Shown here: piece after piece, positions 1-16,173 of the stretch
How the letters are laid out: each line of letters opens with the position of its first letter
How positions within the stretch are numbered: the stretch's first letter is position 1
IMG/VR virus record: IMGVR_UViG_640753024_000004
Span: 1-16,173 of that record
DNA length: 16,173 bases
Direction: 5' to 3' (one strand)
Source: a virus
Taxonomy: Duplodnaviria > Heunggongvirae > Uroviricota > Caudoviricetes
Program-made: the position numbers and the translations under genes
Notes under the pieces: model-generated
What the model was told of the DNA's origin: nothing
What the model saw: the letters and a program-made list of their open reading frames with translations, nothing else
Database searches by the model: none

Positions 1-996
1 TTATGGACGCATTATGGACATTCCTGACACCGGGTTAAGAGTCACAGCATCTTGTAAGAAATCCGGTGCAAAGTGTGCGTAGGTCATAGTTTGCTGAATG
101 TTAGAATGACCCAGGATGCGCTGCAATGTGATTATGTTACCTCCATTCATTATAAAATGTGTGGCAAATGTATGCCTCAAAACATGTACTGCTTGTCCGT
201 CAGGTAAATCGGGTTTTACTTCCCTGAGAGCGTTACGCACTTTGTAGTAACTGGCATTAAAAAGCCTGCCTGAATTTTTGGTCTTGATCCGTTTAATCAG
301 GTCCTGCGAAACGGGAATTGTCCTGCGTTTTCCGTTTTTAGTTTTCATAAACGTAACCATCTGGTTAATGATGTGTTCAGCTTTTAAATTAGACACTTCA
401 CTCCAGCGTCCACCAGTAGAAAGGCAGACCAGAGTTGCATTTAATTCATCACCATCAAGCATGGATAACAGCCGCGTAATCTCTTCACTGGACAAAAAAG
501 CCATTTCCGTAACAGCTTCACGTAACCGTTTAATCTCACGGAACGGGTTGTGGGAGTGGTATTCACCGGCGTCAATTAACTTGGTGAACATCCCGCTCAT
601 TATTGCCAGATGTCGATTTACGCTGGCTGGTTTTAGACCATCGTTCATCATTACAACGCGATAATCAGTTATCGTTTTCTTTGTTAGCTGGTCAGCTCTG
701 GACACTCCCATTTCTGCAAATTTGGCGATTATTGTCGTTAAACGCCCCCGTTCAATATCTCCACGCTCATGTGATTTTCCGTGATATATCCACCATCTAC
801 CTAACAACTCTGTAAGAGTTCGGCGGTCGGCTGGTTTCTCCAACCACTCTTTGTTGTGGTAGTTAACCAATACATGACGTTCGAATGCCTGAGCTTCACC
901 TTTAGTTTTAAATTTCCGCCTGATACGTTTTCCATCTGCACCCTGCGGTCTGACGTCCACTTCATAACGACCATCATCGAGCTTTTTAATAGACAT
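1..996 (-). CDS. int: Prophage tyrosine integrase (P2 Int-like), 331 aa
   Basis: Full ORF on the minus strand ending at the window edge. Position next to a leftward repressor gene matches the P2 int-C arrangement. Family assignment is from my reading of the translated sequence, not a search. Confidence 0.85.
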   Translation of the reverse strand: MSIKKLDDGRYEVDVRPQGADGKRIRRKFKTKGEAQAFERHVLVNYHNKEWLEKPADRRTLTELLGRWWIYHGKSHERGDIERGRLTTIIAKFAEMGVSRADQLTKKTITDYRVVMMNDGLKPASVNRHLAIMSGMFTKLIDAGEYHSHNPFREIKRLREAVTEMAFLSSEEITRLLSMLDGDELNATLVCLSTGGRWSEVSNLKAEHIINQMVTFMKTKNGKRRTIPVSQDLIKRIKTKNSGRLFNASYYKVRNALREVKPDLPDGQAVHVLRHTFATHFIMNGGNIITLQRILGHSNIQQTMTYAHFAPDFLQDAVTLNPVSGMSIMRP

Positions 997-1089
997 AAAG
1001 CCCTCCGATGACGCTGTTTACTTCTACTACTTGAAAATTAATGCAATTTTCTTTCGTACATTTACTACACACATATGCTGAATAAATCG

Positions 1090-1389
1090 TCAGCCAGTCT
1101 TCTGGTCTGAGTGGTGCAAGGTTGTTGAGTCTTGCCCAATGTGTGCGAGAGCCGGGGCTATTTGTCCAGCTGCTGGATCTGTTTCATCAAACATGAACCA
1201 GTCACGATACTTGCGAAAGCGTGGATGCTTAAACAGCTTCATACCTGCTTCCATAGGCATTTTTGATTTTCCTGATTCATATCCATGATATGTGTAGTAA
1301 TTAATTCCAATTAATTCAGCAAGTTCCTTAGTTTTAAGACGTTCGGATTCACGGATGAGCTTTAGTTTCTCACTTTGTTCACTTGACAT
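1090..1389 (-). CDS. C: Immunity repressor, P2 C-like, 99 aa from the ATG at 1389
   Basis: The ORF track starts at a TTG at 1407; the first ATG (1389) gives MSSEQSEKLK..., 99 aa, the length of P2 C. The C-terminal stretch GQIAPALAH..SGQKTG resembles what I recall of P2 C, while the N-terminal half looks different. A GGAG lies about 12 nt upstream of the ATG. Confidence 0.7.
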   Translation of the reverse strand: MSSEQSEKLKLIRESERLKTKELAELIGINYYTYHGYESGKSKMPMEAGMKLFKHPRFRKYRDWFMFDETDPAAGQIAPALAHIGQDSTTLHHSDQKTG

Positions 1390-1497
1390 AATTTTGCTAA
1401 TCTCCAATTATATTGCTACTTGGCAATTTGTGATTCACTCAAAAAGGCTCTAGATGGCTCCAGTTGGTGAATCGCAAATCTTATGGAGGATAGCAAA
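1390..1497. promoter_or_regulatory. Immunity switch region between the divergent C and cox-like genes, with a 13-bp inverted repeat (ATTTGTGATTCAC at 1426-1438, GTGAATCGCAAAT at 1467-1479)
   Basis: The inverted repeat (12 of 13 positions complementary, 28-bp spacer) is seen directly. Its role as operator and the presence of Pe/Pc-type promoters are inferred from P2/186 biology. Confidence 0.45.
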
Positions 1498-1854
1498 GTG
1501 ACGACAAATGTAGAAATTTCTTGTCCAACTAGCGATGAGGCAAGTTTCGAAAATGAAGCCAAACGTAAAAGCATTCAGATTTCAGAGCGCCCATCTGATT
1601 TGCTGTCGAAAGAAGGTTTTGCTCTTTACATCGGTAAGACACCACGCGCGGTGGCTGAAATGGCTAAAGCAGGAAAGCTGCCAGCCTTCTACATGACAGA
1701 CCCATTAAAACCAAGAGGGAAAGCTGAATTATGGATTAATCGCCGTGAGTGGGACAAGTACGCAGCCCAACTGGTTGATGAAGCTCCGACAGAATGGCAT
1801 GACTGGAAAAATCGCATTAGTTACAGCAAATCAAGACATGGCCGTGCGGCTTAA
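1498..1854 (+). CDS. cox: Cox-like excisionase / HTH regulator; start uncertain (GTG 1498 after GGAGGA, or ATG 1483)
   Basis: First rightward gene, opposite the repressor. The segment ...ALYIGKTPRAVAEMAKAGKLPAFYMTDP... follows the pattern I recall for P2 Cox. The product is longer than the 91-aa P2 Cox. Confidence 0.55.
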   Translation: MTTNVEISCPTSDEASFENEAKRKSIQISERPSDLLSKEGFALYIGKTPRAVAEMAKAGKLPAFYMTDPLKPRGKAELWINRREWDKYAAQLVDEAPTEWHDWKNRISYSKSRHGRAA

Positions 1855-1864
1855 GGTGGAAAGG

Positions 1865-2035
1865 ATGAATGAGCCTCGTTGTATTGCTCAGTTATTGCGT
1901 AACGAAAGCCCCAGGGCGATTGACTTCACCATCACCCACGGTAAGGGGCGTAAGGGAATCATTATCCGCACCAAAAAACAGAGTCCGTTAAAAAAGGCTC
2001 TGACCTTTCTGAAAAGCCGGAGGGTCTGGAAATGA
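1865..2035 (+). CDS. Small hypothetical protein at the P2 orf78 position; start uncertain (ATG 1865 after AAGGTGGAAAGG, or ATG 1838, or 1745)
   Basis: ORF in the rightward early operon. Its stop overlaps the next start as ATGA at 2032-2035. Confidence 0.4.
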   Translation: MNEPRCIAQLLRNESPRAIDFTITHGKGRKGIIIRTKKQSPLKKALTFLKSRRVWK

Positions 2036-2532
2036 CAGTGATGACGCTCAATCTCGTCGAAAAACAGCCAGCAGCTATGCGCCGGATAATTGGTAAGCAT
2101 CTTGCCGTCCCTCGCTGGCAGGATACATGTGATTATTATAATCAGATGATGGAGCGCGAACGGCTAACAGTTTGCTTTCATGCGCAGTTAAAACAACGTC
2201 ACGCAACGATGCGTTTTGAAGAAATGAACGACGTCGAACGTGAACGGCTGGTTTGTGCAATTGATGAACTGCGTGGGGCATTCTCAAAACGCCGTCAGGT
2301 TGGCGCAAGTGAGTATGCATATATTAGTTTTTTAACCGTCAGTCAGCGCCGTACTTTATTTATGCACGCACGACTGACAGAAAAAGAATTTAACCAGCCA
2401 TACTGGCGAATTAATGAAGAATCATGTTACTGGCGTGATGCTTTATTCCGTGCATTACGTGAATTATTCAGCCTGTTTGAGTATGCACCGACAATTCTGA
2501 CGTCGGTAAAACCAGAGCAATATCTGCATTAA
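2032..2532 (+). CDS. B: Replication protein B-like, 166 aa
   Basis: Called by synteny (after cox/orf78, before the small ORFs and gene A) and by its 166-aa length, which matches what I recall for P2 B. Sequence identity was not verified. Confidence 0.6.
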   Translation: MTVMTLNLVEKQPAAMRRIIGKHLAVPRWQDTCDYYNQMMERERLTVCFHAQLKQRHATMRFEEMNDVERERLVCAIDELRGAFSKRRQVGASEYAYISFLTVSQRRTLFMHARLTEKEFNQPYWRINEESCYWRDALFRALRELFSLFEYAPTILTSVKPEQYLH

Positions 2533-2595
2533 ATAATTAACCAGAGTTTTTAACGCACTTAATTGTGCGGGGTTTCTTTTTGCCTGGAGAAAGTC

Positions 2596-2820
2596 ATGCA
2601 TACAGTTTCTGAAAATCAGTGCGGTAAATACGCATTACTGCTGCAACAGGCCAGAACCGAAGCACAGGCCGACGCTGCGACGCGCTTTTCTTCTCATCTT
2701 GACGCCATGATTCGCCACATCACAAAGGCGGAGTTATCCCGCGTGGAGATAGTCGAGCTGCTCAGTCAGGAGTCGGAAAAATTTCACAATATCGGATTGT
2801 CTCGCGGGGAGGTGCTTTGA
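2596..2820 (+). CDS. Hypothetical early protein (P2 orf80 position), 74 aa from ATG 2596
   Basis: GGAGAAA lies upstream of ATG 2596; the track start at 2563 is a TTG. A short stem (CGCAC/GTGCG) with a T-rich tail sits just upstream at about 2553-2581. Confidence 0.5.
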
Positions 2821-3122
2821 TGTCCTGTTCTCGTTCAGTTGTATTACTGAATAACGCCTTAAAAATCACCGTTATGAAAAATGGCGATTTATCTCTTATT
2901 CAACTTGGTCTTGATAAAGAAAAACGCGAAATAACTGAGTCTGTTATCGCGATTTATCAGAACGAATTAAATCTCCTGTCTGATGTGGTCAATTTACTTG
3001 TTAAACGCGCTGTATTTCACAAGCAAATCTCCTCCGTGGATGAACTGACGAAATTAACGACAGAAATTGCCAGCTATTGCGCTGATGAATTTAAAAAACT
3101 TAACGACAAAAGGAGCTGGTAA
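2820..3122 (+). CDS. Hypothetical early protein (P2 orf81 position)
   Basis: ATG overlaps the previous stop (TGATG), suggesting translational coupling. An alternative start is ATG 2874 (MKNGDL...). Confidence 0.5.
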   Translation: MSCSRSVVLLNNALKITVMKNGDLSLIQLGLDKEKREITESVIAIYQNELNLLSDVVNLLVKRAVFHKQISSVDELTKLTTEIASYCADEFKKLNDKRSW

Positions 3123-3346
3123 TGCCGGACAACGTAGATTTTATTCAGGAACAACAGGCTGAATTACTGGAGCGTCAGATTAACGCGGCAAGGGTAAAAC
3201 ATTGCGGTGCTTCTGCGCTGGTTTGCGAAGAGTGTGACGCGCCAATACCTGCTGCCCGTCGTGCGGCTTATCCGTCAGCCACGCGTTGTGTTTCCTGCCA
3301 GTCAGTCTTTGAAGCAAAAAACAAACATTACCGGAGAACGGCATGA
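3122..3346 (+). CDS. TraR/DksA-family C4 zinc-finger protein (P2 orf82 position), 74 aa
   Basis: Two Cys pairs (C..C.EEC and C.SC). AGGAG is upstream and the start overlaps the previous stop as TAATG. Confidence 0.7.
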   Translation: MPDNVDFIQEQQAELLERQINAARVKHCGASALVCEECDAPIPAARRAAYPSATRCVSCQSVFEAKNKHYRRTA

Positions 3347-3618
3347 GTATTCGTATTGAAATTGGCGAACGTTATGTCGTTACCAGTGACAGCTTTCAGT
3401 TTATTCTCCACGAGAAAAAGAGAGCGGAAAGCGGTAAAAACGCCGGTCAGGAATGGCTGGCGGTGGTTGGTTATTATCCGAAATTAAGCCAGCTCGTTTC
3501 CGGCCTGATGCATCACGATATTCTGACCGGAAGCGCAAAGTCTTTTGCTGATTTAAACGCGCAGGTTGAGCAACTCAGCAGGCGTTGTTCAGAGGCTTTT
3601 GGCTCATATGGCCGTTAA
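3343..3618 (+). CDS. Hypothetical early protein (P2 orf83 position), 91 aa
   Basis: Start overlaps the previous stop (ATGA). Its stop overlaps the start of gene A. Confidence 0.55.
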   Translation: MSIRIEIGERYVVTSDSFQFILHEKKRAESGKNAGQEWLAVVGYYPKLSQLVSGLMHHDILTGSAKSFADLNAQVEQLSRRCSEAFGSYGR

Positions 3619-5884
3619 AGCCTCCGGGCGTTTTGTCCCTCCGTCAGCATTTGCCGCAGGCACCGGTAAGGCGTTTACCGGTGCTTATGCATGGAACGCG
3701 CCACGCGAGGCTGTCGGGCGCGAAAGACCCCTTACACGTGACGAGATGCGTCAGGTGCAAGGGGTTTTATCCACGATTAACCGTCTGCCTTACTTTTTGC
3801 GCTCGCTGTTTACTTCACGCTATGACTACATCCGGCGCAATAAAAGCCCGGTGCACGGGTTTTATTTTCTCACATCCACTTTTCAGCGTCGTTTATGGCC
3901 GCGCATTGAGCGTGTGAATCAGCGCCATGAAATGAACACCGACGCGTCGTTGCTGTTTCTGGCAGAGCGTGACCACTATGCGCGCCTGCCGGGAATGAAT
4001 GACAAGGAGCTGAAAAAGTTTGCCGCCCGTATCTCATCGCAGCTTTTCATGATGTATGAGGAACTCAGCGATGCCTGGGTGGATGCGCATGGCGAAAAAG
4101 AATCGCTGTTTACGGATGAGGCGCAGGCTCACCTCTATGGTCATGTTGCTGGCGCTGCACGTGCTTTCAATATTTCCCCGCTCTACTGGAAAAAATACCG
4201 TAAAGGACAGATGACCACGAGGCAGGCATATTCTGCCATTGCCCGTCTGTTTAACGATGAGTGGTGGACTCATCAGCTCAAAGGCCAGCGTATGCGCTGG
4301 CATGAGGCGTTACTGATTGCTGTCGGGGAGGTGAATAAAGACCGTTCTCCTTATGCCAGTAAACATGCCATTCGTGATGTACGTGCACGCCGCCAGGCAA
4401 ATCTGGAATTTCTTAAATCGTGTGACCTTGAAAACAGGGAAACCGGCGAGCGCATCGACCTTATCAGTAAGGTGATGGGCAGTATTTCTAATCCTGAAAT
4501 TCGCCGGATGGAGCTGATGAACACCATTGCCGGCATTGAGCGTTACGCCGCCGCAGAGGGTGATGTGGGGATGTTTATCACGCTGACCGCGCCGTCAAAG
4601 TATCACCCGACACGTCAGGTCGGAAAAGGCGAAAGTAAAACCGTCCAGCTAAATCACGGCTGGAACGATGAGGCATTTAATCCAAAGGATGCGCAGCGTT
4701 ATCTCTGCCATATCTGGAGCCTGATGCGCACGGCATTCAAGGATAATGATTTACAGGTCTACGGTTTGCGTGTCGTCGAGCCACACCACGACGGAACGCC
4801 GCACTGGCATATGATGCTTTTTTGTAATCCACGCCAGCGTAACCAGATTATTGAAATCATGCGTCGCTACGCGCTCAAAGAGGATGGAGACGAAAGAGGA
4901 GCCGCGCGAAACCGTTTTCAGGCAAAACATCTTAACCGGGGCGGTGCTGCGGGGTATATCGCGAAATACATCTCAAAAAACATCGATGGCTATGCACTGG
5001 ATGGTCAGCTCGATAACGATACCGGCAGGCCACTGAAAGATACTGCTGCGGCTGTTACCGCATGGGCGTCAACGTGGCGCATTCCGCAATTTAAAACGGT
5101 TGGCCTGCCGACAATGGGGGCTTACCGTGAACTACGCAAATTGCCTCGCGGCGTCAGCATTGCTGATGAATTTGACGAACGCGTCGAGGCTGCACGCGCC
5201 GCCGCAGACAGTGGTGATTTTGCGTTGTATATCAGCGCGCAGGGCGGGGCAAATGTCCCGCGCGATTGTCAGACTGTCAGGGTCGCCCGTAGCCCGTCGG
5301 ATGACGTTAACGAGTACGAGGAAGAAGTCGAGAGAGTGGTCGGCATTTACGCGCCGCATCTCGGCGCGCGTCATATTCATATCACCAGAACGACGGACTG
5401 GCGCATTGTGCCGAAAGTTCCGGTCGTTGAGCCTTTGACTTTAAAAAGCGGCATCGCCGCGCCTCGGAGTCCTGTCAATAACTGTGGAAAGCTCACCGGT
5501 GGTGATACTTCGTTACCGGCTCCCACACCTTCTGAACACGCCGCAGCAGTGCTTAATCTGGTTGATGACGGTGTTATCGAATGGAACGACACGGAGGTCG
5601 TGAGGGCGCTCAGGGGGGCATTAAAACACGACCTGAGAACACCAAATCGTCAGCAAAGAAACGGAAGCCCGTTAAAACCACATGAAATTGCACCATCGGC
5701 CAGACTGACCCGGTCGGAAAGAATGCAAATTACCCGTATCCGCGTTGACCTTGCTCAGAACGGTATCAGGCCGCAGCGATGGGAGCTTGAGGCGCTGGCG
5801 CGTGGCGCGACCGTAAATTATTACGGGAAATCTTTCAATTATCAGGTCGCTGATGAGTGGCCTGGATTTTTGTTACCCATTTGA
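3608..5884 (+). CDS. A: Rolling-circle replication initiator endonuclease gpA (HUH family), about 758 aa
   Basis: Contains the HUH-type active-site tyrosine motif GYIAKYISKNIDG. The whole protein matches my recollection of P2 gpA. ATG 3608 (MAVKASGRF...) is preferred over the in-frame TTG at 3566. Confidence 0.9.
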   Translation: MAVKASGRFVPPSAFAAGTGKAFTGAYAWNAPREAVGRERPLTRDEMRQVQGVLSTINRLPYFLRSLFTSRYDYIRRNKSPVHGFYFLTSTFQRRLWPRIERVNQRHEMNTDASLLFLAERDHYARLPGMNDKELKKFAARISSQLFMMYEELSDAWVDAHGEKESLFTDEAQAHLYGHVAGAARAFNISPLYWKKYRKGQMTTRQAYSAIARLFNDEWWTHQLKGQRMRWHEALLIAVGEVNKDRSPYASKHAIRDVRARRQANLEFLKSCDLENRETGERIDLISKVMGSISNPEIRRMELMNTIAGIERYAAAEGDVGMFITLTAPSKYHPTRQVGKGESKTVQLNHGWNDEAFNPKDAQRYLCHIWSLMRTAFKDNDLQVYGLRVVEPHHDGTPHWHMMLFCNPRQRNQIIEIMRRYALKEDGDERGAARNRFQAKHLNRGGAAGYIAKYISKNIDGYALDGQLDNDTGRPLKDTAAAVTAWASTWRIPQFKTVGLPTMGAYRELRKLPRGVSIADEFDERVEAARAAADSGDFALYISAQGGANVPRDCQTVRVARSPSDDVNEYEEEVERVVGIYAPHLGARHIHITRTTDWRIVPKVPVVEPLTLKSGIAAPRSPVNNCGKLTGGDTSLPAPTPSEHAAAVLNLVDDGVIEWNDTEVVRALRGALKHDLRTPNRQQRNGSPLKPHEIAPSARLTRSERMQITRIRVDLAQNGIRPQRWELEALARGATVNYYGKSFNYQVADEWPGFLLPI

Positions 5885-6150
5885 GTAAAAATGCAGCGTG
5901 ATTTTATATGCCTTTGAATGGATTATGCGAAGCGCCTCTAAGGCAGATGAGGAGCAATAGCATGCTGAAGTAGAAGGCTAAATTGTATTGAATCGCTAGC
6001 ATGTAATTTAAGGCAGCTATTTGATTCGAGTCATAAAAGAGCATCTATTTCGGCTAATAAAACCATTGCGAGTGACCTTTTGTCGAAGCATAATTCATCT
6101 CGAGCGAAGTCTTGCTAGTCTTTCATCGGAATGATGACAGGCGCAAAAAA

Positions 6151-6174
6151 ACCACCCTGGCAGGTGGTTTTTTT
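6151..6174. terminator. Bidirectional rho-independent terminator (ACCACC-CTGGC-AGGTGGT hairpin with an A-run before and a T-run after)
   Basis: Seen directly: aaaaaaACCACCctggcaGGTGGTttttttt. It lies downstream of gene A on the plus strand and downstream of the 37-aa ORF on the minus strand. Confidence 0.5.
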
Positions 6175-6186
6175 GTTTGAAGCATA

Positions 6187-6300
6187 TTAAAGAATAATAC
6201 TTACATGGATATTACTGACGTTTACTGACAAACCACTTGGACTACCATATGGATAGCCAAAGAGGGCCAGAACGAGAATGCAGTAATAGCACTTCTTCAT
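6187..6300 (-). CDS. Candidate 37-aa peptide MKKCYYCILVLALFGYPYGSPSGLSVNVSNIHVSIIL
   Basis: ATG preceded by AGGAGGAGAT on the minus strand. The stop sits 13 nt from the terminator hairpin. The N-terminus is hydrophobic. The ORF is not in the supplied track because it is too short. Confidence 0.35.
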   Translation of the reverse strand: MKKCYYCILVLALFGYPYGSPSGLSVNVSNIHVSIIL

Positions 6301-6872
6301 ATCTCCTCCTGTAAGCAGAGGGCAATTTCCGCCGATATATGCGCTTCTGAGGCGGAGTTACTATTTAGCGAAGTCTTGCCCTGAAATAATGCTCTGTTTA
6401 AACGCAAAGTGATCTGGCATATCACCGAACAGAGAGCCTGAACAACACAACATATAGTATGTCGTTGTTTCTGGTTGCATTTTATGTTGTGTAATACTGG
6501 TTTTGCATCAAGGATGTTTGAGCTTTTTTTGATATAGCTCAAAGTAAAAAGCAGGGACTACGGATGATAAGGTATTGAAAGCAATGTAAATTTTTTAAAG
6601 TTATTGGTGGCTAAAAAATGCACGGTTTCAATATGGCGGACTTAAATAAGCAATTAAAAAAGTCATAAATATCACTAAAATCATGGTGTTACGTTTTTTT
6701 TGTGGGAGCTGCGGTGACGCTTAAGTTGATTTGTCATTAAATAAGCCGTGCATGCAACAAGTGAATGTTTTTGCATGCGTCGGGGATGCCCGTTCCAGCT
6801 GCTCGCGGTCAGAGCTGGTGCGGATCCATAGTATCTATGCAACTGCATTAAAACCGCCACATGAAGCGGGCG

Positions 6873-6891
6873 GGCGAGGCGGGGAAAGCAC
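6873..6891. other. cos site: exact match to the P2/P4 19-nt cohesive-end sequence GGCGAGGCGGGGAAAGCAC
   Basis: The 19-mer is seen directly. Identity to the P2 cos sequence is from memory. The position (after the gene A region, before the portal gene) matches the P2 prophage map. Confidence 0.7.
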
Positions 6892-6934
6892 CGCGCGTAA
6901 GATAAACAGAAGAGCGAAGGATTATGGTTGAGTA

Positions 6935-6997
6935 TTTGTGTTTTTGTACATATGATAAAAAGGTGTTTACGCTTAAAAACACATCAAAGGAGATGAT
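6935..6997 (+). promoter_or_regulatory. AT-rich putative promoter and RBS (AGGAG about 6 nt before the ATG) of the ATPase cassette
   Basis: Contains TTGTGT/TTGTAC and TATGAT-like hexamers and an SD sequence. Exact -35/-10 assignment is unresolved. Confidence 0.3.
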
Positions 6998-8299
6998 ATG
7001 GAAAATATAAAGATTGATAAGTTTCTCACTATTCAAAAAGTTGATATTCCTCTTAAGAAAGTGAATATATTTATTGGGCCTCAGGCACAGGGGAAAAGTG
7101 TCATTGCAAAGCTAATAAAATATTTTAAAGATTATCCTATGGATATACTACGAGCTTCAACAGAGGGTAAAACTAAAAGAGATATATTGAAGGAGCAAAA
7201 GAATAAGTTTAGTAAAATTTTCCCTCAGCAGTATTGGGCTGATGATGAGTTTTTTATTGAGTATAGTAATAAGCACTATTGGGTGCGGATTACTAATCGA
7301 AAAAATAGCAAAGGGTCATTGAAAATAGACCTTTCTGAGAATTTAACGAAGACGATTGCTAAACTTCGTTTGATTGTACGAAAGGATTTAGATGAAAATA
7401 TTGAGAATTCACTTGCAGAAAGCGTTACGAGAAGACGTAAACGCGGAATTGAACATGAATTGCGAGTATGTCTTTCTCTAGGATTGTTTTCAGAACCAGA
7501 AACAAAGCTTGAAAGTGTTTTTTATATCCCCGCAGGGCGCTCTTTTTTTGCTAATTTGCAAAAAAATGTGTTTTCATTTTTATCCAGTAGTATAGAAATT
7601 GACTACTTTTTGACAGAGTTTGGTTCTCTGTATGAACAAACAAAAAAATTATTTAACCAAGATTACATGATTAGGATGCTTAGGGGGGCTGTGCCTCAAC
7701 ATGTTAATAAACTTGTGGAGGAGTTGATTTGCGGAAAATATATAACAGAAAAGGGTGAGGATTTTATTCGTCATGCTGCTAAGAAGACGAATCTTAACAA
7801 CTCGAGCTCAGGGCAGCAAGAAGCGTTACCAATGGCTTTAATGTTATCCTCATGGCCGTATTTACAGTCTGTGACTAGTAAGAGTTTTATTATTGAGGAG
7901 CCGGAGGCTCATCTGTTTCCTTCTGCCCAAGCAAAAGTTGTATCTTTAATAGCCTCAGCGTATAACCAAGCAGAAAGCTATTGTAGCTATACAATAACAA
8001 CACATAGTCCATATATTCTAAGTGCCTTCAATAATTTGATTCAAGCAGGTAATGCATTAAAGTGTATTAAGGGCAAGAATAATACCGATATCGAACGCTT
8101 ATATAAGCTTGTTCCAGAGTCTCAAATTATTGATTTTGATGATGTGACAGCTTATATGGTTAATGCTGGGAAAGTGACGGAAATACTGGATTCCGAACTA
8201 AATATATTAGATGCGAATGAAATAGATAGGATTTCCTCTATTTTTTCAGAGACTTTTGATGCATTGATTGATATCGAATATTCGGCTACTGTGAATTAG
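6998..8299 (+). CDS. ABC-type ATPase of the OLD/AAA_21-like class, 433 aa; cargo gene
   Basis: Walker A GPQAQGKS, ABC-signature-like SSGQQ, Walker B/D-loop FIIEEPEAHLFP, H-loop TTHSP. AT-rich codon usage unlike the prophage backbone. No C-terminal TOPRIM or nuclease domain is apparent. Confidence 0.85.
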   Translation: MENIKIDKFLTIQKVDIPLKKVNIFIGPQAQGKSVIAKLIKYFKDYPMDILRASTEGKTKRDILKEQKNKFSKIFPQQYWADDEFFIEYSNKHYWVRITNRKNSKGSLKIDLSENLTKTIAKLRLIVRKDLDENIENSLAESVTRRRKRGIEHELRVCLSLGLFSEPETKLESVFYIPAGRSFFANLQKNVFSFLSSSIEIDYFLTEFGSLYEQTKKLFNQDYMIRMLRGAVPQHVNKLVEELICGKYITEKGEDFIRHAAKKTNLNNSSSGQQEALPMALMLSSWPYLQSVTSKSFIIEEPEAHLFPSAQAKVVSLIASAYNQAESYCSYTITTHSPYILSAFNNLIQAGNALKCIKGKNNTDIERLYKLVPESQIIDFDDVTAYMVNAGKVTEILDSELNILDANEIDRISSIFSETFDALIDIEYSATVN

Positions 8300-8307
8300 G
8301 TGATTGA

Positions 8308-8745
8308 ATGTGTAAAAATTGCAAAGGAAAAACAAAAAATAAAATCATTGTGCTATCTGATAAAGGAACGTCAACGCAATTGTCAGTCACAAATGATAAT
8401 GAGTTGGAAGTTGAGCATAAGTTAATAGATGGTTGCGCTATTGTTGTTGGAGAGCGGTGTGATCATTATTTGAAGATTTATAACAATCAGGATGTTTCAC
8501 ATCTTTTTGTTGAACTTAAAGGAAGTGATGTTGAAAAAGCTGTTAAACAGATAGTGACAACTTTAAAGTCAGGTGTGATTAATGTAGGTGCTAAAGAAAA
8601 AAAACATGGTGCTATTGTTAGCACTAGGAATCCGCTAAACTCAACAGAAACCAATAGGTTAAAGAAGAAAATTCTTTTGAGTGACGGAGTGAATTTGCAT
8701 TTCTATAAAATGAAGGCGCAGCAAAAAATAACTTCTTTTACATGA
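8308..8745 (+). CDS. Small Cys-rich partner protein, 145 aa, of unknown function; possible nuclease-like effector
   Basis: Starts 9 nt after the ATPase stop with AGGTGA upstream, so it is an operon partner. Has CxxC (C2,C5) plus C43/C51, and a D52...E69-L-K71 arrangement that could be a PD-(D/E)xK-like core; the latter is speculative. Confidence 0.7.
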   Translation: MCKNCKGKTKNKIIVLSDKGTSTQLSVTNDNELEVEHKLIDGCAIVVGERCDHYLKIYNNQDVSHLFVELKGSDVEKAVKQIVTTLKSGVINVGAKEKKHGAIVSTRNPLNSTETNRLKKKILLSDGVNLHFYKMKAQQKITSFT

Positions 8746-8758
8746 AGTGTTCTCTTGT

Positions 8759-8782
8759 ACAGGCATGCATTTGCATGCCTGT
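8759..8782. terminator. Near-perfect palindrome ACAGGCATGCA-TT-TGCATGCCTGT after the cassette; possible terminator or protein-binding site
   Basis: 11-bp stem seen directly. The T-tail is weak (cttttac). Confidence 0.35.
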
Positions 8783-8848
8783 CGTGTAATCTTTTACACT
8801 ATATTTGTGTTGGTTCTAATCTTGTTATGTGTTTGTTTCGGTGATGGG

Positions 8849-9391
8849 TCATAATGAATAAGTTCGAAAGCGAAATACATCTTCGCCAACCCAACAGTTA
8901 ATTTCTTTACATCGCTCTTGGAGGAACGTTAGCTCGTTGCGTACAAAGACTTGTGCTGCTTTTGTTACATCTCCAAATCCTCCTGTGTTGTTGGGCATCA
9001 TTCCTATCATTTGGGGAGGCACGCGATGAGCACTCATTAGATCTTCAGCACTTGCTTTTTTGATATTAAAAAAATCGTCCTTCGTTGCCACTTCACTGAG
9101 CGGGATAATTTTAATGCCGTCGGCTTTCCCCTGTGGGGCATAGAGAAACAGATTTTTAAAGTTATTACGGCCTTTCGACTTAACCATGTTTTCGCGAAGC
9201 ATTTCGATATCGTTGCGATCCTGCACGGCATCGGTGACGTACATGATGTATCCGGCATGAGCGCCGTTTTCGTAATACTTGCGGCGGAACAGCGTGGCCG
9301 ACTCATTCAGCCAGGCAGAGTTAAGGGCGCTGAGATATTCCGGCAGGCCGTACAGCTCCTGATTAATATCCGGCTCCAGCAGGTGAAACAC
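8849..9391 (-). pseudogene. Q: Portal protein gene Q, 3' portion only (about 180 codons, C-terminal half)
   Basis: The translation matches what I recall of the C-terminal half of the P2 portal protein (P2 Q is about 344 aa). The reading frame has no plausible N-terminus and runs into the E/E' remnant. Confidence 0.75.
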
Positions 9392-9394
9392 GGA

Positions 9395-9647
9395 GCCGGG
9401 TGACCGAGCAGGAAGTCGCCGCGCTGGAACTGCCTGACCTTGTGGCGCTGGCCGGTAAGGTGGTCGGTTTTTTGTCGCCGAACTCGGTGCAGTGACGTTT
9501 CCGAAAAATCTCTCGGTCGATGACCTGATGGCGGATGTGGCAGTGATATTTCACTGGCCGCCATCAGAACTGTATCCCATGAGCCTGACCGAACTCATCA
9601 CATGGCGCGAAAAGGCGCTCCGGCGAAGCGGAAACACGAATGAGTAA
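9395..9647 (+). pseudogene. E: 3' remnant of tail chaperone genes E and E' (E frame to the stop at 9493-9495; E' extension frame to the stop at 9645-9647, overlapping the T start)
   Basis: Two overlapping frames: ...TEQEVAALELPDLVALAGKVVGFLSPNSVQ* and ...FFVAELGAVTFPKNLSVDDLMADVAVIFHWPPSELYPMSLTELITWREKALRRSGNTNE*, joined at a T6G slippery site. No start codon or 5' part is present. Confidence 0.6.
9468..9474 (+). other. Programmed -1 frameshift slippery sequence TTTTTTG of the E/E' pair
   Basis: T6G is seen where the E frame (GGT TTT TTG) and E' frame (TTT TTT GTC) overlap. A frameshift of this kind is established for the P2 E/E' tail chaperone pair. Confidence 0.5.
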
Positions 9648-10697
9648 CAATGTAAAATTACAGGTATTGCTCAGGGCTGTTGACCAGGCATCACGCCCGT
9701 TTAAATCCATCCGTACAGCGAGCAAATCGCTGTCGGGGGATATCCGGGAAACACAAAAATCACTGCGCGAGCTGAACGGTCAGACATCCCGTATTGAGGG
9801 ATTTCGCAAGACCAGTGCACAGCTCGCCGTGACTGGTCATGCACTTGAAAAGGCTCGGCAGGAAGCAGAAGCCCTTGCCACACAGTTTAAAAACACCGAA
9901 CGTCCGACCCGTGCTCAGGCGAAAGTGCTGGAATCAGCAAAGCGAGCGGCGGAGGACTTACAGGCGAAATATAACCGCCTGACGGATTCCGTTAAACGCC
10001 AGCAGCGGGAACTGGCCGCTGTGGGAATTAATACCCGCAATCTTGCACATGATGAGCAGGGACTGAAAAACCGTATCAGTGAAACCACCGCACAGCTTAA
10101 CCGGCAGCGCGACGCGCTGGCGCGTGTCAGTGCGCAACAGGCAAAACTTAACGCAGTCAAACAGCGTTATCAGGCCGGAAAGGAACTGGCCGGAAATATG
10201 GCCTCAGTAGGCGCTGCCGGTGTGGGGATTGCGGCGGCGGGAACGATGACCGGAGTTAAGTTGCTGATGCCCGGTTATGAGTTTGCGCAGAAAAACTCAG
10301 AATTGCAGGCCGTGCTCGGAGTGGCAAAAGACTCCGCCGAAATGACCGCACTACGCAAACAGGCGCGCCAGCTCGGCGACAATACCGCCGCCTCGGCGGA
10401 TGATGCGGCCGGTGCACAGATAATCATCGCGAAAGCGGGTGGAGATGCTGCGGCTATTCAGGCGGCAACGCCGGTCACGCTGAATATGGCACTGGCGAAT
10501 CAGCGGTCGATGGAAGAAAACGCGCAACTGTTGCTGGGGACTAAGGCATCCTTTCAACTGTCAAATGATGATGTCAGCCATGTGGGCGACGTGTTGTCGG
10601 CAACGATGAATAAGTCGGCGGCTGATTTTCAGGGGCTCAGTGATGCACTGACTTACCTCGGGCCGGTTGCGAGGACGGCGGGTGTAAGTCTTGAGCA
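9640..10697 (+). pseudogene. T: Tail tape-measure gene T, 5' part, interrupted by an IS21-family insertion
   Basis: Coiled-coil-like, Ala/Gln-rich N-terminal tape-measure sequence. The frame runs into the IS left end and stops at 10723-10725 inside the IS inverted repeat. Confidence 0.8.
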
Positions 10698-10798: not shown

Positions 10799-12765
<1,967 letters not shown>

Positions 12766-12822: not shown

Positions 12823-14216
12823 AGCAGGCAGCGGCCATGACAGGTGTGCTGCATGACAATAACATCAGGGGGTCAATGGCGGGTACTGGTAGTAGTGCCG
12901 TTGTCACCCGATTACAGGCTCCGACAGGGAAAGCATGGGAAGCACTCAAAGAGCTTGGCGTTAAAACCTCGGACAAAAAGGGAAATATGCGTCCGTTGTT
13001 CACCATTCTGAAAGAGATTCAGGCCAGCTTTGATAAACACAAGCTGGGAACGTCTCAGAAGGGGGAATACCTTAAAACCATTTTTGGTGAGGAAGCCCTG
13101 AAATCAGCGAACGTTTTACTGGCAGCGGCTGCAAGCGGAAAACTGGATAAGCTGACCGCCACGCTGAAAGCCTCGGACGGTAAAACGGAAGAGCTGGTTA
13201 AAATCATGCAGGATAACCTCGGCGGTGACTTTAAGGAGTTTCAGTCTGCTTATGAGGCGGTGGGGACTGACCTGTTTGACCAACAGGAAGGCGCACTGCG
13301 TAATCTCACGCAGACGGCCACAAAGTATGTGTTAAAACTCGACGGCTGGATCCAGAAAAACAAATCACTGGCGTCAACCATCGGCCTTATTGTCGGTGGC
13401 GCACTGGCGCTTATTGGCATCATCGGTGCAATTGGTCTTGTAGCCTGGCCGGTTATCACCGGCATTAATGCCATCATCGCGGCAGCAGGCGCAATGGGGG
13501 CAATCTTCACGACGGTTGGCAGTGCTGTTATGACGGCCATCGGGGCGATTAGCTGGCCGATTGTGGCTGTGGTGGCCGCCATTGTCGCCGGGGCGTTGCT
13601 TATCCGTAAATACTGGGAGCCTGTCAGCGCATTCTTTGGTGGTGTGGTTGAAGGGCTGAAAGCAGCATTTGCGCCGGTGGGGGAGCTGTTCTCGCCACTG
13701 AAACCGGTGTTTGACTGGCTGGGCGAAAAGTTACAGGCCGCGTGGCAGTGGTTTAAAAACCTGATTGCCCCGGTCAAAGCCACCCAGGACACCCTGAACC
13801 GTTGCCGTGATACTGGCGTCATGTTCGGGCAGGCACTGGCTGACGCGCTGATGCTGCCGCTTAATGCGTTCAACAAACTGCGCAGCGGTATTGACTGGGT
13901 ACTGGAAAAACTCGGCGTCATCAACAAAGAGTCTGACGCACTTGACCAGACTGCCGCCAGAACTCATGCCGCCACGTATGGCACAGGTGGTTATATTCCG
14001 GCGACCAGCTCTTATGCAGGCTATCAGGCTTACCAGCCGGTCACGGCACCGGCTGGTCGCTCTTATGTGGACCAGAGTAAAAACGAATATCACATCAACC
14101 TGACGGGCGGTACTGCGCCGGGGACACAGCTTGACCGCCAGTTACAGGATGTGCTCGAAAAATACGAGCGGGATAAACGTGCGCGCGCCCGTGCCAGCAT
14201 GATGCATGACGGTTAA
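12823..14216 (+). pseudogene. T: Tail tape-measure gene T, 3' part
   Basis: Removing the IS and one AGCA copy rejoins the frame as ...GVSLEQAAAMTGVLHDNNIRGSMAGTG..., giving about 816 codons, close to the length I recall for P2 gpT. Contains a hydrophobic Gly/Ala-rich central segment typical of tape-measure proteins. Confidence 0.8.
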
Positions 14217-14230
14217 GGAGGTAACGAAAA

Positions 14231-14710
14231 ATGATGCTCGCGTTAGGTATGTTTGTTTTTATGCGCCAGACGCTGCCACACCAGACCATGCAGCGTGAAT
14301 CAGATTATCGCTGGCCGTCAAATTCCCGTATCGGCAAACGGGATGCCTTTCAGTTTCTCGGTGCGGGTGAGGAAAACATCACGCTTGCCGGTGTGCTTTA
14401 TCCTGAACTGACCGGCGGAAAGCTGACGATGACCACGCTCAGACTGATGGCAGAGGAAGGCCGGGCGTGGCCGTTGCTGGATGGCACCGGCATGATTTAC
14501 GGCATGTATGTCATCAGCAAGGTGAGTGAAACAGGGAGTATTTTCTTTGCAGACGGCACACCCCGGAAAATTGATTTTACGCTGTCGCTCACCCGCGTTG
14601 ATGAATCACTGGCCGCGCTTTATGGCGATATCGGTAAACAGGAGGAATCGCTCATCGGTAAGGCTGGCAGTATGGCGACTAAATTCACGGATATGACGGG
14701 GGCGGGATAA
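14231..14710 (+). CDS. U: Tail protein gpU-like, 159 aa
   Basis: Synteny T-U-D-ogr, AAGGAGG upstream, and a length matching what I recall for P2 gpU. Confidence 0.75.
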   Translation: MMLALGMFVFMRQTLPHQTMQRESDYRWPSNSRIGKRDAFQFLGAGEENITLAGVLYPELTGGKLTMTTLRLMAEEGRAWPLLDGTGMIYGMYVISKVSETGSIFFADGTPRKIDFTLSLTRVDESLAALYGDIGKQEESLIGKAGSMATKFTDMTGAG

Positions 14711-15873
14711 TGCTGGATGCACTGACATTTGATGCAGGCAGTACGCTGACGCCGGATTACATGCTGATGCTCGACAGCAGGGATATTACCGGCAATATCA
14801 GCGACCGTCTGATGAGTATGACCCTGACGGATAACCGGGGCTTTGAGGCTGACCAGCTTGATATTGAACTGAACGATGCCGACGGGCAGGTCGGGCTGCC
14901 GGTTCGTGGCGCTGTCCTGACGGTGTATATCGGCTGGAAAGGTTTTGCCCTGGTATGCAAAGGGAAATTTACCGTTGATGAGGTTGAACACCGGGGCGCA
15001 CCGGATGTGGTCACCATCCGCGCCCGGAGTGCAGATTTTCGCGGGACGCTCAATTCCCGCCGGGAAGGCTCCTGGCATGACACCACGCTCGGTGCGATTG
15101 TTGAGGCGATAGCCACCCGTAACAGGCTGGAAGCCAGTGTCGCTCCGTCACTGGCCGGAATTAAAATCCCGCACATCGACCAGTCGCAGGAGTCCGATGT
15201 GAAATTCCTGACCCGTCTTGCTGAACGCAACGGCGGCGAGGTGTCGGTAAAAATGGGAAAACTGCTGTTTCTCAAAGCGGGGCAGGGGGTGACGGCCAGC
15301 GGTAAAAAAATCCCGCAGATCACCATCACCCGCAGCGACGGTGACCGTCATCATTTTGCGATTGCTGACCGTGGAGCCTATACCGGCGTAACGGCAAAGT
15401 GGCTTCACACCAAAGACCCGAAGCCGCAAAAGCAGAAGGTAAAACTGAAACGCAAAAAGAAAGAGAAACACCTGCGCGCACTGGAGCACCCGAAAGCGAA
15501 ACCAGTCACGCAGAAGAAAGCGCCAAAAGTACCGGAAGCGCGCGAAGGTGAATGCATGGCCGGTGAGGCTGACAACGTTTTTGCCCTGACCACGGTATAT
15601 GCCACGAAAGCGCAGGCCATGCGCGCCGCTCAGGCGAAGTGGGATAAGCTGCAACGGGGCGTGGCGGAGTTCTCCATCAGCCTGGCTACCGGTCGGGCAG
15701 ATATTTACACGGAAACACCGGTCAAAGTGTCAGGCTTTAAGCGCGTCATAGACGAGCAGGACTGGACAATCACTAAGGTGACACATTTTCTGAATAATAG
15801 CGGCTTCACGACGTCCTTAGAGCTTGAGGTCAGGCTTTCTGATGTGGAGTACGAAACAGAAGATGATGAGTGA
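14710..15873 (+). CDS. D: Tail protein gpD-like, 387 aa
   Basis: Start overlaps the U stop (ATAATG). Synteny and length match P2 gpD as I recall it. Has a Lys-rich central linker. Confidence 0.8.
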   Translation: MLDALTFDAGSTLTPDYMLMLDSRDITGNISDRLMSMTLTDNRGFEADQLDIELNDADGQVGLPVRGAVLTVYIGWKGFALVCKGKFTVDEVEHRGAPDVVTIRARSADFRGTLNSRREGSWHDTTLGAIVEAIATRNRLEASVAPSLAGIKIPHIDQSQESDVKFLTRLAERNGGEVSVKMGKLLFLKAGQGVTASGKKIPQITITRSDGDRHHFAIADRGAYTGVTAKWLHTKDPKPQKQKVKLKRKKKEKHLRALEHPKAKPVTQKKAPKVPEAREGECMAGEADNVFALTTVYATKAQAMRAAQAKWDKLQRGVAEFSISLATGRADIYTETPVKVSGFKRVIDEQDWTITKVTHFLNNSGFTTSLELEVRLSDVEYETEDDE

Positions 15874-15954
15874 TGTTTTTATTTTATCTGTTTGTTTTAT
15901 AAGGATAAATTAACTAGAATGGCACCATCAACAAAACCGGAAGAGGTGCTCGCG

Positions 15955-16173
15955 ATGTTTCATTGTCCTTTATGCCAGCATGCCGCACATGCGCGTACAA
16001 GCCGCTATATCACTGACACGACAAAAGAGCGTTATCACCAGTGTCAGAACGTGAATTGCAGCGCCACGTTCATCACTTATGAGTCGGTACAGCGATACAT
16101 CGTGAAACCGGGAGAAGTCCACGCCGTAAGGCCGCACCCGTTGCCGTCAGGGCAGCAAATTATGTGGATGTAA
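15955..16173 (+). CDS. ogr: Late-gene transcriptional activator Ogr (Cys4 zinc finger), 72 aa from MFHCPLCQH...
   Basis: CPLC...CQNVNC zinc-finger motif; the sequence matches my recollection of P2 Ogr. The track start at 15892 is probably too far upstream. Confidence 0.9.
   Translation: MFHCPLCQHAAHARTSRYITDTTKERYHQCQNVNCSATFITYESVQRYIVKPGEVHAVRPHPLPSGQQIMWM

Follow-up and report, generated by a model that had tools for sequence, protein, structure and literature searches.

A P2-like prophage of Escherichia coli E24377A, predicted to be defective, very probably arose by a single non-homologous deletion between genes Q and E

The E24377A prophage locus

The sequence analysed here, hereafter the window, is a stretch of 16,173 bases that matches the chromosome of Escherichia coli E24377A (CP000800.1) at 100%. 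It occupies positions 362-16534 of a 21-kb locus (L009; CP000800.1 1,000,333-1,021,418), with its left end at the integrase stop codon and its right end at the ogr stop codon. The prophage has pflA as its left neighbour and pflB-focA-ycaO on its right, an arrangement collinear with that of strain EP91A, our main comparator. In a whole-window search, neither any phage record nor any complete E. coli genome matched 80% or more of the window in one place. Every sizeable ORF is a P2 homologue, an IS gene or a member of a two-gene cargo. Since B, A, the Q and E remnants, T, U, D and ogr are collinear with P2 (NC_001895) at 89-100% amino acid identity, and int, C and cox are homologous, we assign the element to the P2-like (Peduovirus) prophages, as a putatively defective or cryptic member. 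The features are as follows, in window coordinates unless stated otherwise.

1-996, minus strand: int, 331 aa, intact; Pfam Int_N/Phage_integrase; 53% amino acid identity to P2 Int; 0 differences from EP91A
1090-1389, minus strand: C, immunity repressor, 99 aa, intact (L009 1451-1750); 50% amino acid identity to P2 C over the full length
1483-1854, plus strand: cox, 123 aa, intact; Pfam Phage_Cox; tblastn match to P2 Cox at 35% identity
2032-2532, plus strand: B, replication, 166 aa, intact; 98.8% amino acid identity to P2 B over the full length
3608-5884, plus strand: A, replication initiator, 758 aa, intact; 98.1% amino acid identity to P2 A residues 1-754; Pfam Phage_GPA
6873-6891, plus strand: cos, the exact P2 19-nt cohesive-end sequence GGCGAGGCGGGGAAAGCAC (script match)
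6998-8745, plus strand: cargo pair between cos and Q; ATPase at 6998-8299 (433 aa), partner at 8308-8745 (145 aa)
8849-9402, minus strand: Q, 5′-truncated portal gene; the 3′ 554 nt, about the C-terminal 55%, without a start codon or promoter of its own
9400-9402: deletion junction, joining P2 753 to P2 19611 (three-way alignment and BLAST coordinates)
9401-9647, plus strand: 5′-truncated E with E′; E at 9401-9495 (last ~30 codons and stop), E′ extension to 9647
9468-9474, plus strand: E/E′ frameshift site TTTTTTG (sequence inspection)
9640-10697, plus strand: T, tape-measure gene, 5′ part; P2 T residues 1-356, 91.6% amino acid identity
10698-12822, plus strand: ISEc62 (IS21 family) within T; istA at 10799-11971, istB at 11968-12765; Pfam rve, IstB_IS21
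12823-14216, plus strand: T, 3′ part; P2 T residues 344-815, 89% amino acid identity; 99.9% identity to EP91A
14231-14710, plus strand: U, intact, without the pF late promoter; full-length tblastn match at 96.9%
14710-15873, plus strand: D, intact, without the pF late promoter; full-length tblastn match at 98.7%
15955-16173, plus strand: ogr, late-gene activator, 72 aa, intact; 100% amino acid identity to P2 Ogr
L009 253-271 (AATGCGACCAATAACTGAC) and L009 16642-16660 (AATGTCACCAATAACTGAC): candidate att copies, just outside the window on either side

A first-pass annotation made from the sequence alone had listed int, C, cox, B, A, cos, U, D and ogr as retained. All of these are indeed full length, and cos is present as an exact P2 19-mer. 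The list is correct but incomplete, as it omits T, which is kept although split by ISEc62, and the intact cargo pair beside cos. The orf80-83 region is also full length. In P2, gene A contains the origin of replication. The similarity around cos extends beyond the 19-mer, with window 6844-6891 being 95.8% identical to P2 33546-33593. Between the end of A and cos lie approximately 990 bp (window 5885-6872) where the only ORF call is 37 aa long and none is convincing; no Rfam match falls here, nor did the Rfam scan return any match in the window as a whole. This segment could be a decayed remnant of earlier hotspot cargo, or regulatory or other non-coding sequence.

The cargo pair is a candidate defence system of the PDC-M29 type, with PADLOC matches of the ATPase to PDC-M29A (E=1.9e-31) and of its partner to PDC-M29B (E=1.6e-4). 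The ATPase carries AAA_15/AAA_21 domains (Pfam AAA_15, E=4.7e-21) and also matches, more weakly, models of the AriA, GajA and PtuA types. The full-length prophage of EP91A has this pair too. The pair sits in the gpA-cos-gpQ defence hotspot of Rousset et al. (PMC9122126).

The ISEc62 copy is 99.6-99.9% identical to annotated copies of the element and is bordered by a 4-bp target duplication, AGCA, at 10694-10697 and 12823-12826, as determined by register comparison with EP91A. No complete E. coli genome in our collection has ISEc62 at this site in T.

A candidate att core was found as a 19-nt imperfect direct repeat (17/19 positions matching) with copies 16,389 bp apart. The prophage thus measures ~16.4 kb between the candidate repeats, in line with the size of about 16 kb given in the first-pass annotation. 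The left candidate copy falls within pflA, in its 5′ part; the pflA call in E24377A is 265 aa long, and the phage therefore appears to have supplied a replacement 5′ end for this gene.

Position of the Q-E junction

To place the junction, window 8700-10100 was used as a megablast query on 5,426 complete E. coli genomes, and two separate families of matches resulted. Those on the Q side stop at window 9402, with identities of up to 99.9% (best in EP91A), while those on the E/E′/T side start at window 9401, with identities of up to 100% (best in strain 90-9281). Both halves have E-values of 0, so that chance similarity is of no concern. No record covers both sides of the junction together, and none covers 80% or more of the query. 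Base-by-base comparison with EP91A as the Q-side parent and 90-9281 as the E-side parent shows perfect identity to the former as far as GCCGGGTG and to the latter starting at TGACCGAG. The breakpoint is ambiguous only within the dinucleotide TG at 9401-9402, the sole bases common to both parents in the three-way alignment.

In P2 coordinates, window 9048-9400 corresponds to 401-753, within Q (187-1221, minus strand), and window 9401-10655 corresponds to 19611-20865, that is, the end of E (19430-19705) followed by E′ and T. The first-pass annotation had proposed a deletion junction within 9360-9410, and the switch in homology at 9400-9402 bears this out. The position 9391 that it also gave is near the junction but about 10 bp to the left of the true switch, and is the first GTG of the mechanically called ORF 8849-9391. 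The alignment to P2 that it suggested as a check places the breakpoint between P2 753 and 19611, with a microhomology of 2 bp.

The sequence left of the junction is Q-derived, as had been supposed. It matches Pfam Phage_portal over profile positions 117-266 of 321, is 96.6% identical to P2 Q, and is collinear with the portal gene of EP91A (3150-4169 of L003) at 99.9% identity up to 9402. To the right lies the 3′ end of E and then E′, also as proposed (Pfam Phage_P2_GpE), identical at 100% to strain 90-9281 from 9401 on.

Comparison with a full-length prophage at the same locus

Comparison with related strains carrying an intact prophage at this locus had been put forward as a further check, and such a prophage, essentially intact, is found in strain EP91A (NZ_CP149815.1). 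This prophage is full length, P2-like and likewise inserted between pflA and pflB, and its integrase, repressor, cox and cargo are those of the window. Window 1-9402 aligns to it at 99.44% identity with 0 gaps and 53 differences, 48 of which are confined to window 1870-3784 (B and orf80-83), leaving 5 in the rest of 1-9402. Such clustering indicates that window 1870-3784 is probably a short patch of homologous recombination from another P2-like phage. Right of the junction, window 9401-10697 has 0 differences from EP91A and window 12823-16173 has 4. With both sides of the junction collinear with, and near-identical to, a full-length relative at the same locus, the comparison with EP91A shows what is best read as a simple internal deletion with collinear flanks. 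The EP91A prophage itself carries ISEc12 (IS21 family) in its tail-fibre assembly region (L008 13121-15670), and this otherwise intact comparator may therefore be defective as well.

Genes lost with the deletion

The interval missing from E24377A is P2 754-19610, or 18,857 bp in P2 coordinates. In EP91A the distance from breakpoint to breakpoint is 19,208 bp, a figure that includes the EP91A-specific ISEc12, and we put the total loss at ~17–19 kb in one deletion. Removed with it are Q codons 1-156; P, O, N, M, L, X, Y, K, lysA/B/C, R, S and orf30; V, W, J, I, H, G, Z/fun, FI and FII; and E codons 1-60. These comprise the terminase, scaffold, capsid, head-completion, lysis, baseplate, tail-fibre, sheath and tube genes.

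When all 36 P2 proteins were searched against the 21-kb locus by tblastn, int, C, cox, B, A, U, D and ogr gave matches, as did the C-terminal part of Q and residues 57-91 of E; T matched in two pieces, and P2 Old matched the cargo ATPase weakly. There were zero matches in the same 21 kb for P, O, N, M, L, X, Y, K, lysA, lysB, R, S and orf30, and likewise for V, W, J, I, H, G, Z/fun, FI and FII. The earlier statement that the capsid, terminase, lysis and most tail genes are gone is thus upheld, P through FII being without a tblastn match. The contrary possibility that it had named, namely that the missing genes lie nearby in a rearranged order, is excluded for the 21 kb around the prophage, with the flanks pflA and pflB-focA-ycaO collinear with EP91A. 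Since a viable phage would need a full set of head, packaging, lysis and tail genes and the 21-kb locus has no match to morphogenetic or lysis genes other than the Q, E and T fragments, U and D, the E24377A element is predicted to be a defective derivative and not a functional P2-like phage. Judging from its gene content, it would no longer produce particles.

Truncated Q and E and the late genes

Q reads leftward from the junction and E rightward. As the two are transcribed in opposite directions, away from each other, no fusion protein is formed, and the earlier description of a fusion of Q to E is right for the DNA but not for translation. The Q and E stumps are two 5′-truncated genes standing back to back, promoterless and start-less. 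The Q frame is open across the junction into E-derived sequence. We found no sigma-70-like promoter in window 8600-9800, and a terminator-like match at 9447-9468 proved to be no new feature but the stem beside the TTTTTTG frameshift site of E/E′.

The late promoters of P2, by its annotation, are pP/pO (3016-3127), pV (~10239-10308) and pF (17555-17628). All of these Ogr-dependent regions fall within the deletion, which leaves E′, T, U and D without a late promoter.

Reproducibility of the junction

Besides CP000800.1, the junction is carried by three independent Logan short-read assemblies, with junction-spanning identities of 100% in SRR9425412, 100% in SRR1185395 and 99.9% in SRR24529635 (2 mismatches in 1,980 nt). 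Two of the junction-bearing short-read contigs terminate exactly inside ISEc62, and all of the short-read assemblies that have the junction are broken at this IS. The instances of the junction came to light solely when the truncated T and Q products were looked up by exact protein match. The exact junction 42-mer was not found in species-representative genomes, nor the exact junction 28-mer in viral or metagenome contigs, and the junction appears, within the collections searched, to be private to the E24377A lineage.

Other deleted P2-like prophages in E. coli

Roughly 1,700 E. coli genomes carry a P2-like prophage. In many genomes, the whole-window search connected the left half of the window with the right half, which indicated that shortened prophages are present in these. 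As the search joins only pieces that are at most 8.6 kb apart, the resulting sample is biased toward loci that keep what the window keeps. Eight further strains were inspected, with the following integration loci and lesions (breakpoints in P2 coordinates).

W13-16, pflA/pflB: Q606 joined to 19403
O157:H16 98-3133, pflA/pflB: P1505 joined to 22302
AF44, pflA/pflB: O3720 joined to FI18032
DLI.5a, pflA/pflB: A29549 joined to H
NCTC9104, pflA/pflB: IS1-bounded replacement, orf91 to G
PE15, yegR/yegQ: P1502 joined to FII19067
38A23CPO011, cpxP/fieF: P2117 joined to T21149
1916D18, cpxP/fieF: P1456 joined to V10669

The lesions differ in all eight strains, with scattered endpoints, and none is the junction of Q753 to E19611 seen in E24377A. 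Head and lysis genes were lost in every one of the eight, int-A was usually kept, and the junction overlap was 1-6 bp in the cases inspected. Among the nine surveyed deletion derivatives, U-D-ogr was kept in all and the cos-Q region with its cargo in seven, while the other two lost cos and cargo. Despite the biased sample, the survey shows that large internal erosion of P2-like prophages is frequent in E. coli. At pflA/pflB, at least six different deleted derivatives exist in E. coli (the window and five of the eight surveyed strains).

The left breakpoints of PE15 (L006 ~10840) and 98-3133 (L007 ~13931) lie ~3 bp apart in the terminase gene P, following TTCCGGYGTGTA, at P2 ~1500-1505. The two prophages are unrelated, differing in integration locus and right breakpoint. 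A third left breakpoint in P, that of 1916D18 (L014 ~10528), lies ~46-49 bp from this pair. The coincidence in gene P could reflect a local hotspot of illegitimate recombination, or it could be just that, a coincidence.

Origin of the deletion

We consider it very probable that the defective P2-like prophage of E24377A resulted from a single intramolecular deletion between Q and E, illegitimate and non-homologous in nature. The parental sequences around the breakpoints are identical in register at 14 of 60 positions, which is chance level, and the longest word common to both parents within ±200 nt is 9 nt, compared with 8.4 nt in shuffled sequences. At the parental breakpoints we found no repeat, IS or site for a site-specific recombinase, only the 2-bp overlap; no IS terminus lies at the junction (9400-9402), and the A nick site (P2 29892) is distant from both breakpoints. 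Unrelated parental sequences and a junction free of IS argue for illegitimate recombination. The 2-bp ambiguity is no argument for a homology-guided event, as by calculation ~16% of random joins are expected to show as much.

One event would have joined the middle of Q to codon 61 of E, by a route of end-joining or slippage with minimal or no homology. The 2-bp overlap would fit simple end-joining and replication slippage equally, and the choice between them lies beyond what sequence alone can tell. The insertion of ISEc62 in T is a separate, independent inactivating event, one that further disables the remaining tail genes. The remnant may have persisted because the loss of killing functions would be harmless or favourable to the host, with the immunity and defence genes still useful.

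There are several other possible explanations for the junction, all of which we consider less probable to differing degrees. The exact junction is missing from 5,426 complete E. coli genomes as well as from the species-representative, viral and metagenome collections, as might be expected if an assembler had made a chimeric contig from an intact prophage. Its presence in a finished chromosome and, in identical form, in three independently assembled runs, with no repeat at the junction able to mislead an assembler, leaves a negligible chance of such an artefact. It is also conceivable that two different P2-like prophages, in tandem or through a superinfecting phage, recombined to give halves of different origin. 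P2-like prophages recombine readily, the patch at 1870-3784 with its 48 of 53 left-half differences is a trace of recombination, and in the search with window 8700-10100 the best right-half match was 90-9281 while the best left-half match was EP91A. However, outside the patch both halves are near-identical to the one prophage of EP91A (5, 0 and 4 differences), and the same non-homologous join of Q to E would still be required, so that this scenario adds a step and explains nothing more; we regard it as improbable. Less probable still is a deletion brought about by a recombinase or transposable element, be it a Cin/Hin-type invertase acting at pseudo-sites, an IS-mediated adjacent deletion or nicking by the A protein. 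Intact relatives do encode a ‘recombinase family protein’ (Cin/Hin-type, upstream of FI) by an invertible tail-fibre region, the junction has an IS21-family element 1.3 kb away, and NCTC9104 lost its middle region via the IS1-bounded replacement. Yet site-specific recombinases require related sites on both partners, and the similarity between the parental breakpoints is at chance level; no IS end abuts the junction, the intact 4-bp duplication around ISEc62 points to a simple insertion, and the distance of both breakpoints from the A nick site speaks against nicking. A search for invertase crossover sites among the inverted repeats of the EP91A tail-fibre region returned mainly IS termini.

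A different question is whether the 16-kb remnant is a mini-element selected for function, either a domesticated defence island or a satellite-like element that depends on a helper and is packaged via its intact cos. Int, C, cox, B, A, cos, ogr and the PDC-M29-like pair are full length and near-identical to those of an intact phage, the survey repeatedly recovered derivatives with cos-Q and cargo (7/9) and U-D-ogr (9/9), and domestication of defective P2 elements that keep defence genes has been raised (PMC13586616). However, near-identity to EP91A means that the deletion may be too recent for further decay to have set in, so that intact genes are no proof of selection, and the survey favours loci that retain what the window retains. 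Two derivatives lost cos and cargo, deletion endpoints are scattered, the sizeable ORFs include no gene for capsid size or helper exploitation, and the IS in T suggests ongoing decay. A selected mini-element is accordingly unlikely, though less so than any of the explanations weighed in the preceding paragraph. We hold as similarly doubtful the broader idea that selection, and not randomness, shapes deletions in P2-like prophages toward a recurrent ‘grounded’ form of 13-20 kb, possibly mobilised by helpers, with a possible hotspot in P. If true, this form would have shed host killing while keeping immunity, integration, replication, cos, ogr and the defence cargo beside cos, and such mini-P2 elements, once excised, replicated and packaged (e.g. 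as dimers) by a heteroimmune P2-like helper, would be satellites in the making.

Relationship to known phages, satellites and remnants

The gene order int-C-cox-B-orf80-83-A-(cargo)-cos-Q ... E-T-U-D-ogr is shared with P2 (NC_001895) and EP91A. At the nucleotide level, B-A, Q and E-ogr are 93-97% identical to P2, and the 19-nt cos is the same; identity to EP91A is 99.4-99.9%, with the integration locus in common. The E24377A prophage differs from P2 in lacking the 5′ half of Q, P through FII and the 5′ two-thirds of E, and in having T split by ISEc62. Protein identity to P2 is only 53% for int, 50% for C and 35% for cox, against 97-100% for B, A, U, D and ogr, which points to a different immunity and integration type, one that targets pflA/pflB. 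The cargo differs as well, being a PDC-M29-like pair and not tin/old.

Defective P2-like prophages that keep conserved defence genes have already been described (PMC13586616, a 2026 NAR paper). Like those, the E24377A prophage is a P2 derivative immobilised by core-gene loss that retains an undamaged hotspot cargo and, at its right end, ogr. That work leaves open whether remnants of this kind stabilise defence genes in the chromosome, a question that the E24377A case could help to test. Together with the eight other distinct deletions, it could also seed a study of random versus selected erosion of P2-like prophages.

Decay of prophages through deletion and IS insertion is textbook knowledge. 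The E24377A deletion is a routine case of such erosion, in a genome that has long been public, although our literature search found no published description of this prophage or its junction. The locus is correctly annotated not as a complete phage but as a defective P2-like prophage, in which Q and E are 5′-truncated pseudogenes and T is an IS-disrupted pseudogene. Beyond annotation the import is small, but the existence of a near-identical intact counterpart makes this a clean and datable example of prophage disarming.

With P4-like satellites the element shares a P2-type cos beside a defence hotspot, an integrase and an activator of the Ogr/Delta family, and a lack of structural genes, so that packaging would need a helper. 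Unlike these satellites, it has no alpha primase, sid, psu or epsilon evident among its called genes, its replication genes are P2 A and B, and it is probably a recent deletion derivative of a complete phage. We rejected identification as a P4-like satellite on gene content, the called genes being P2 homologues, IS genes or the cargo pair. A tailocin derived from a P2-like tail was likewise rejected: besides having a disrupted T, the element lacks the lysis genes and FI, FII, V, W, J, I, H and G.

The P2 remnant of E. coli K-12 consists of ogrK and a fragment of D. Compared with it, the E24377A prophage is far less eroded, with the whole early region, cos, U and D intact, and all of its damage comes down to a single clean junction and a single IS.
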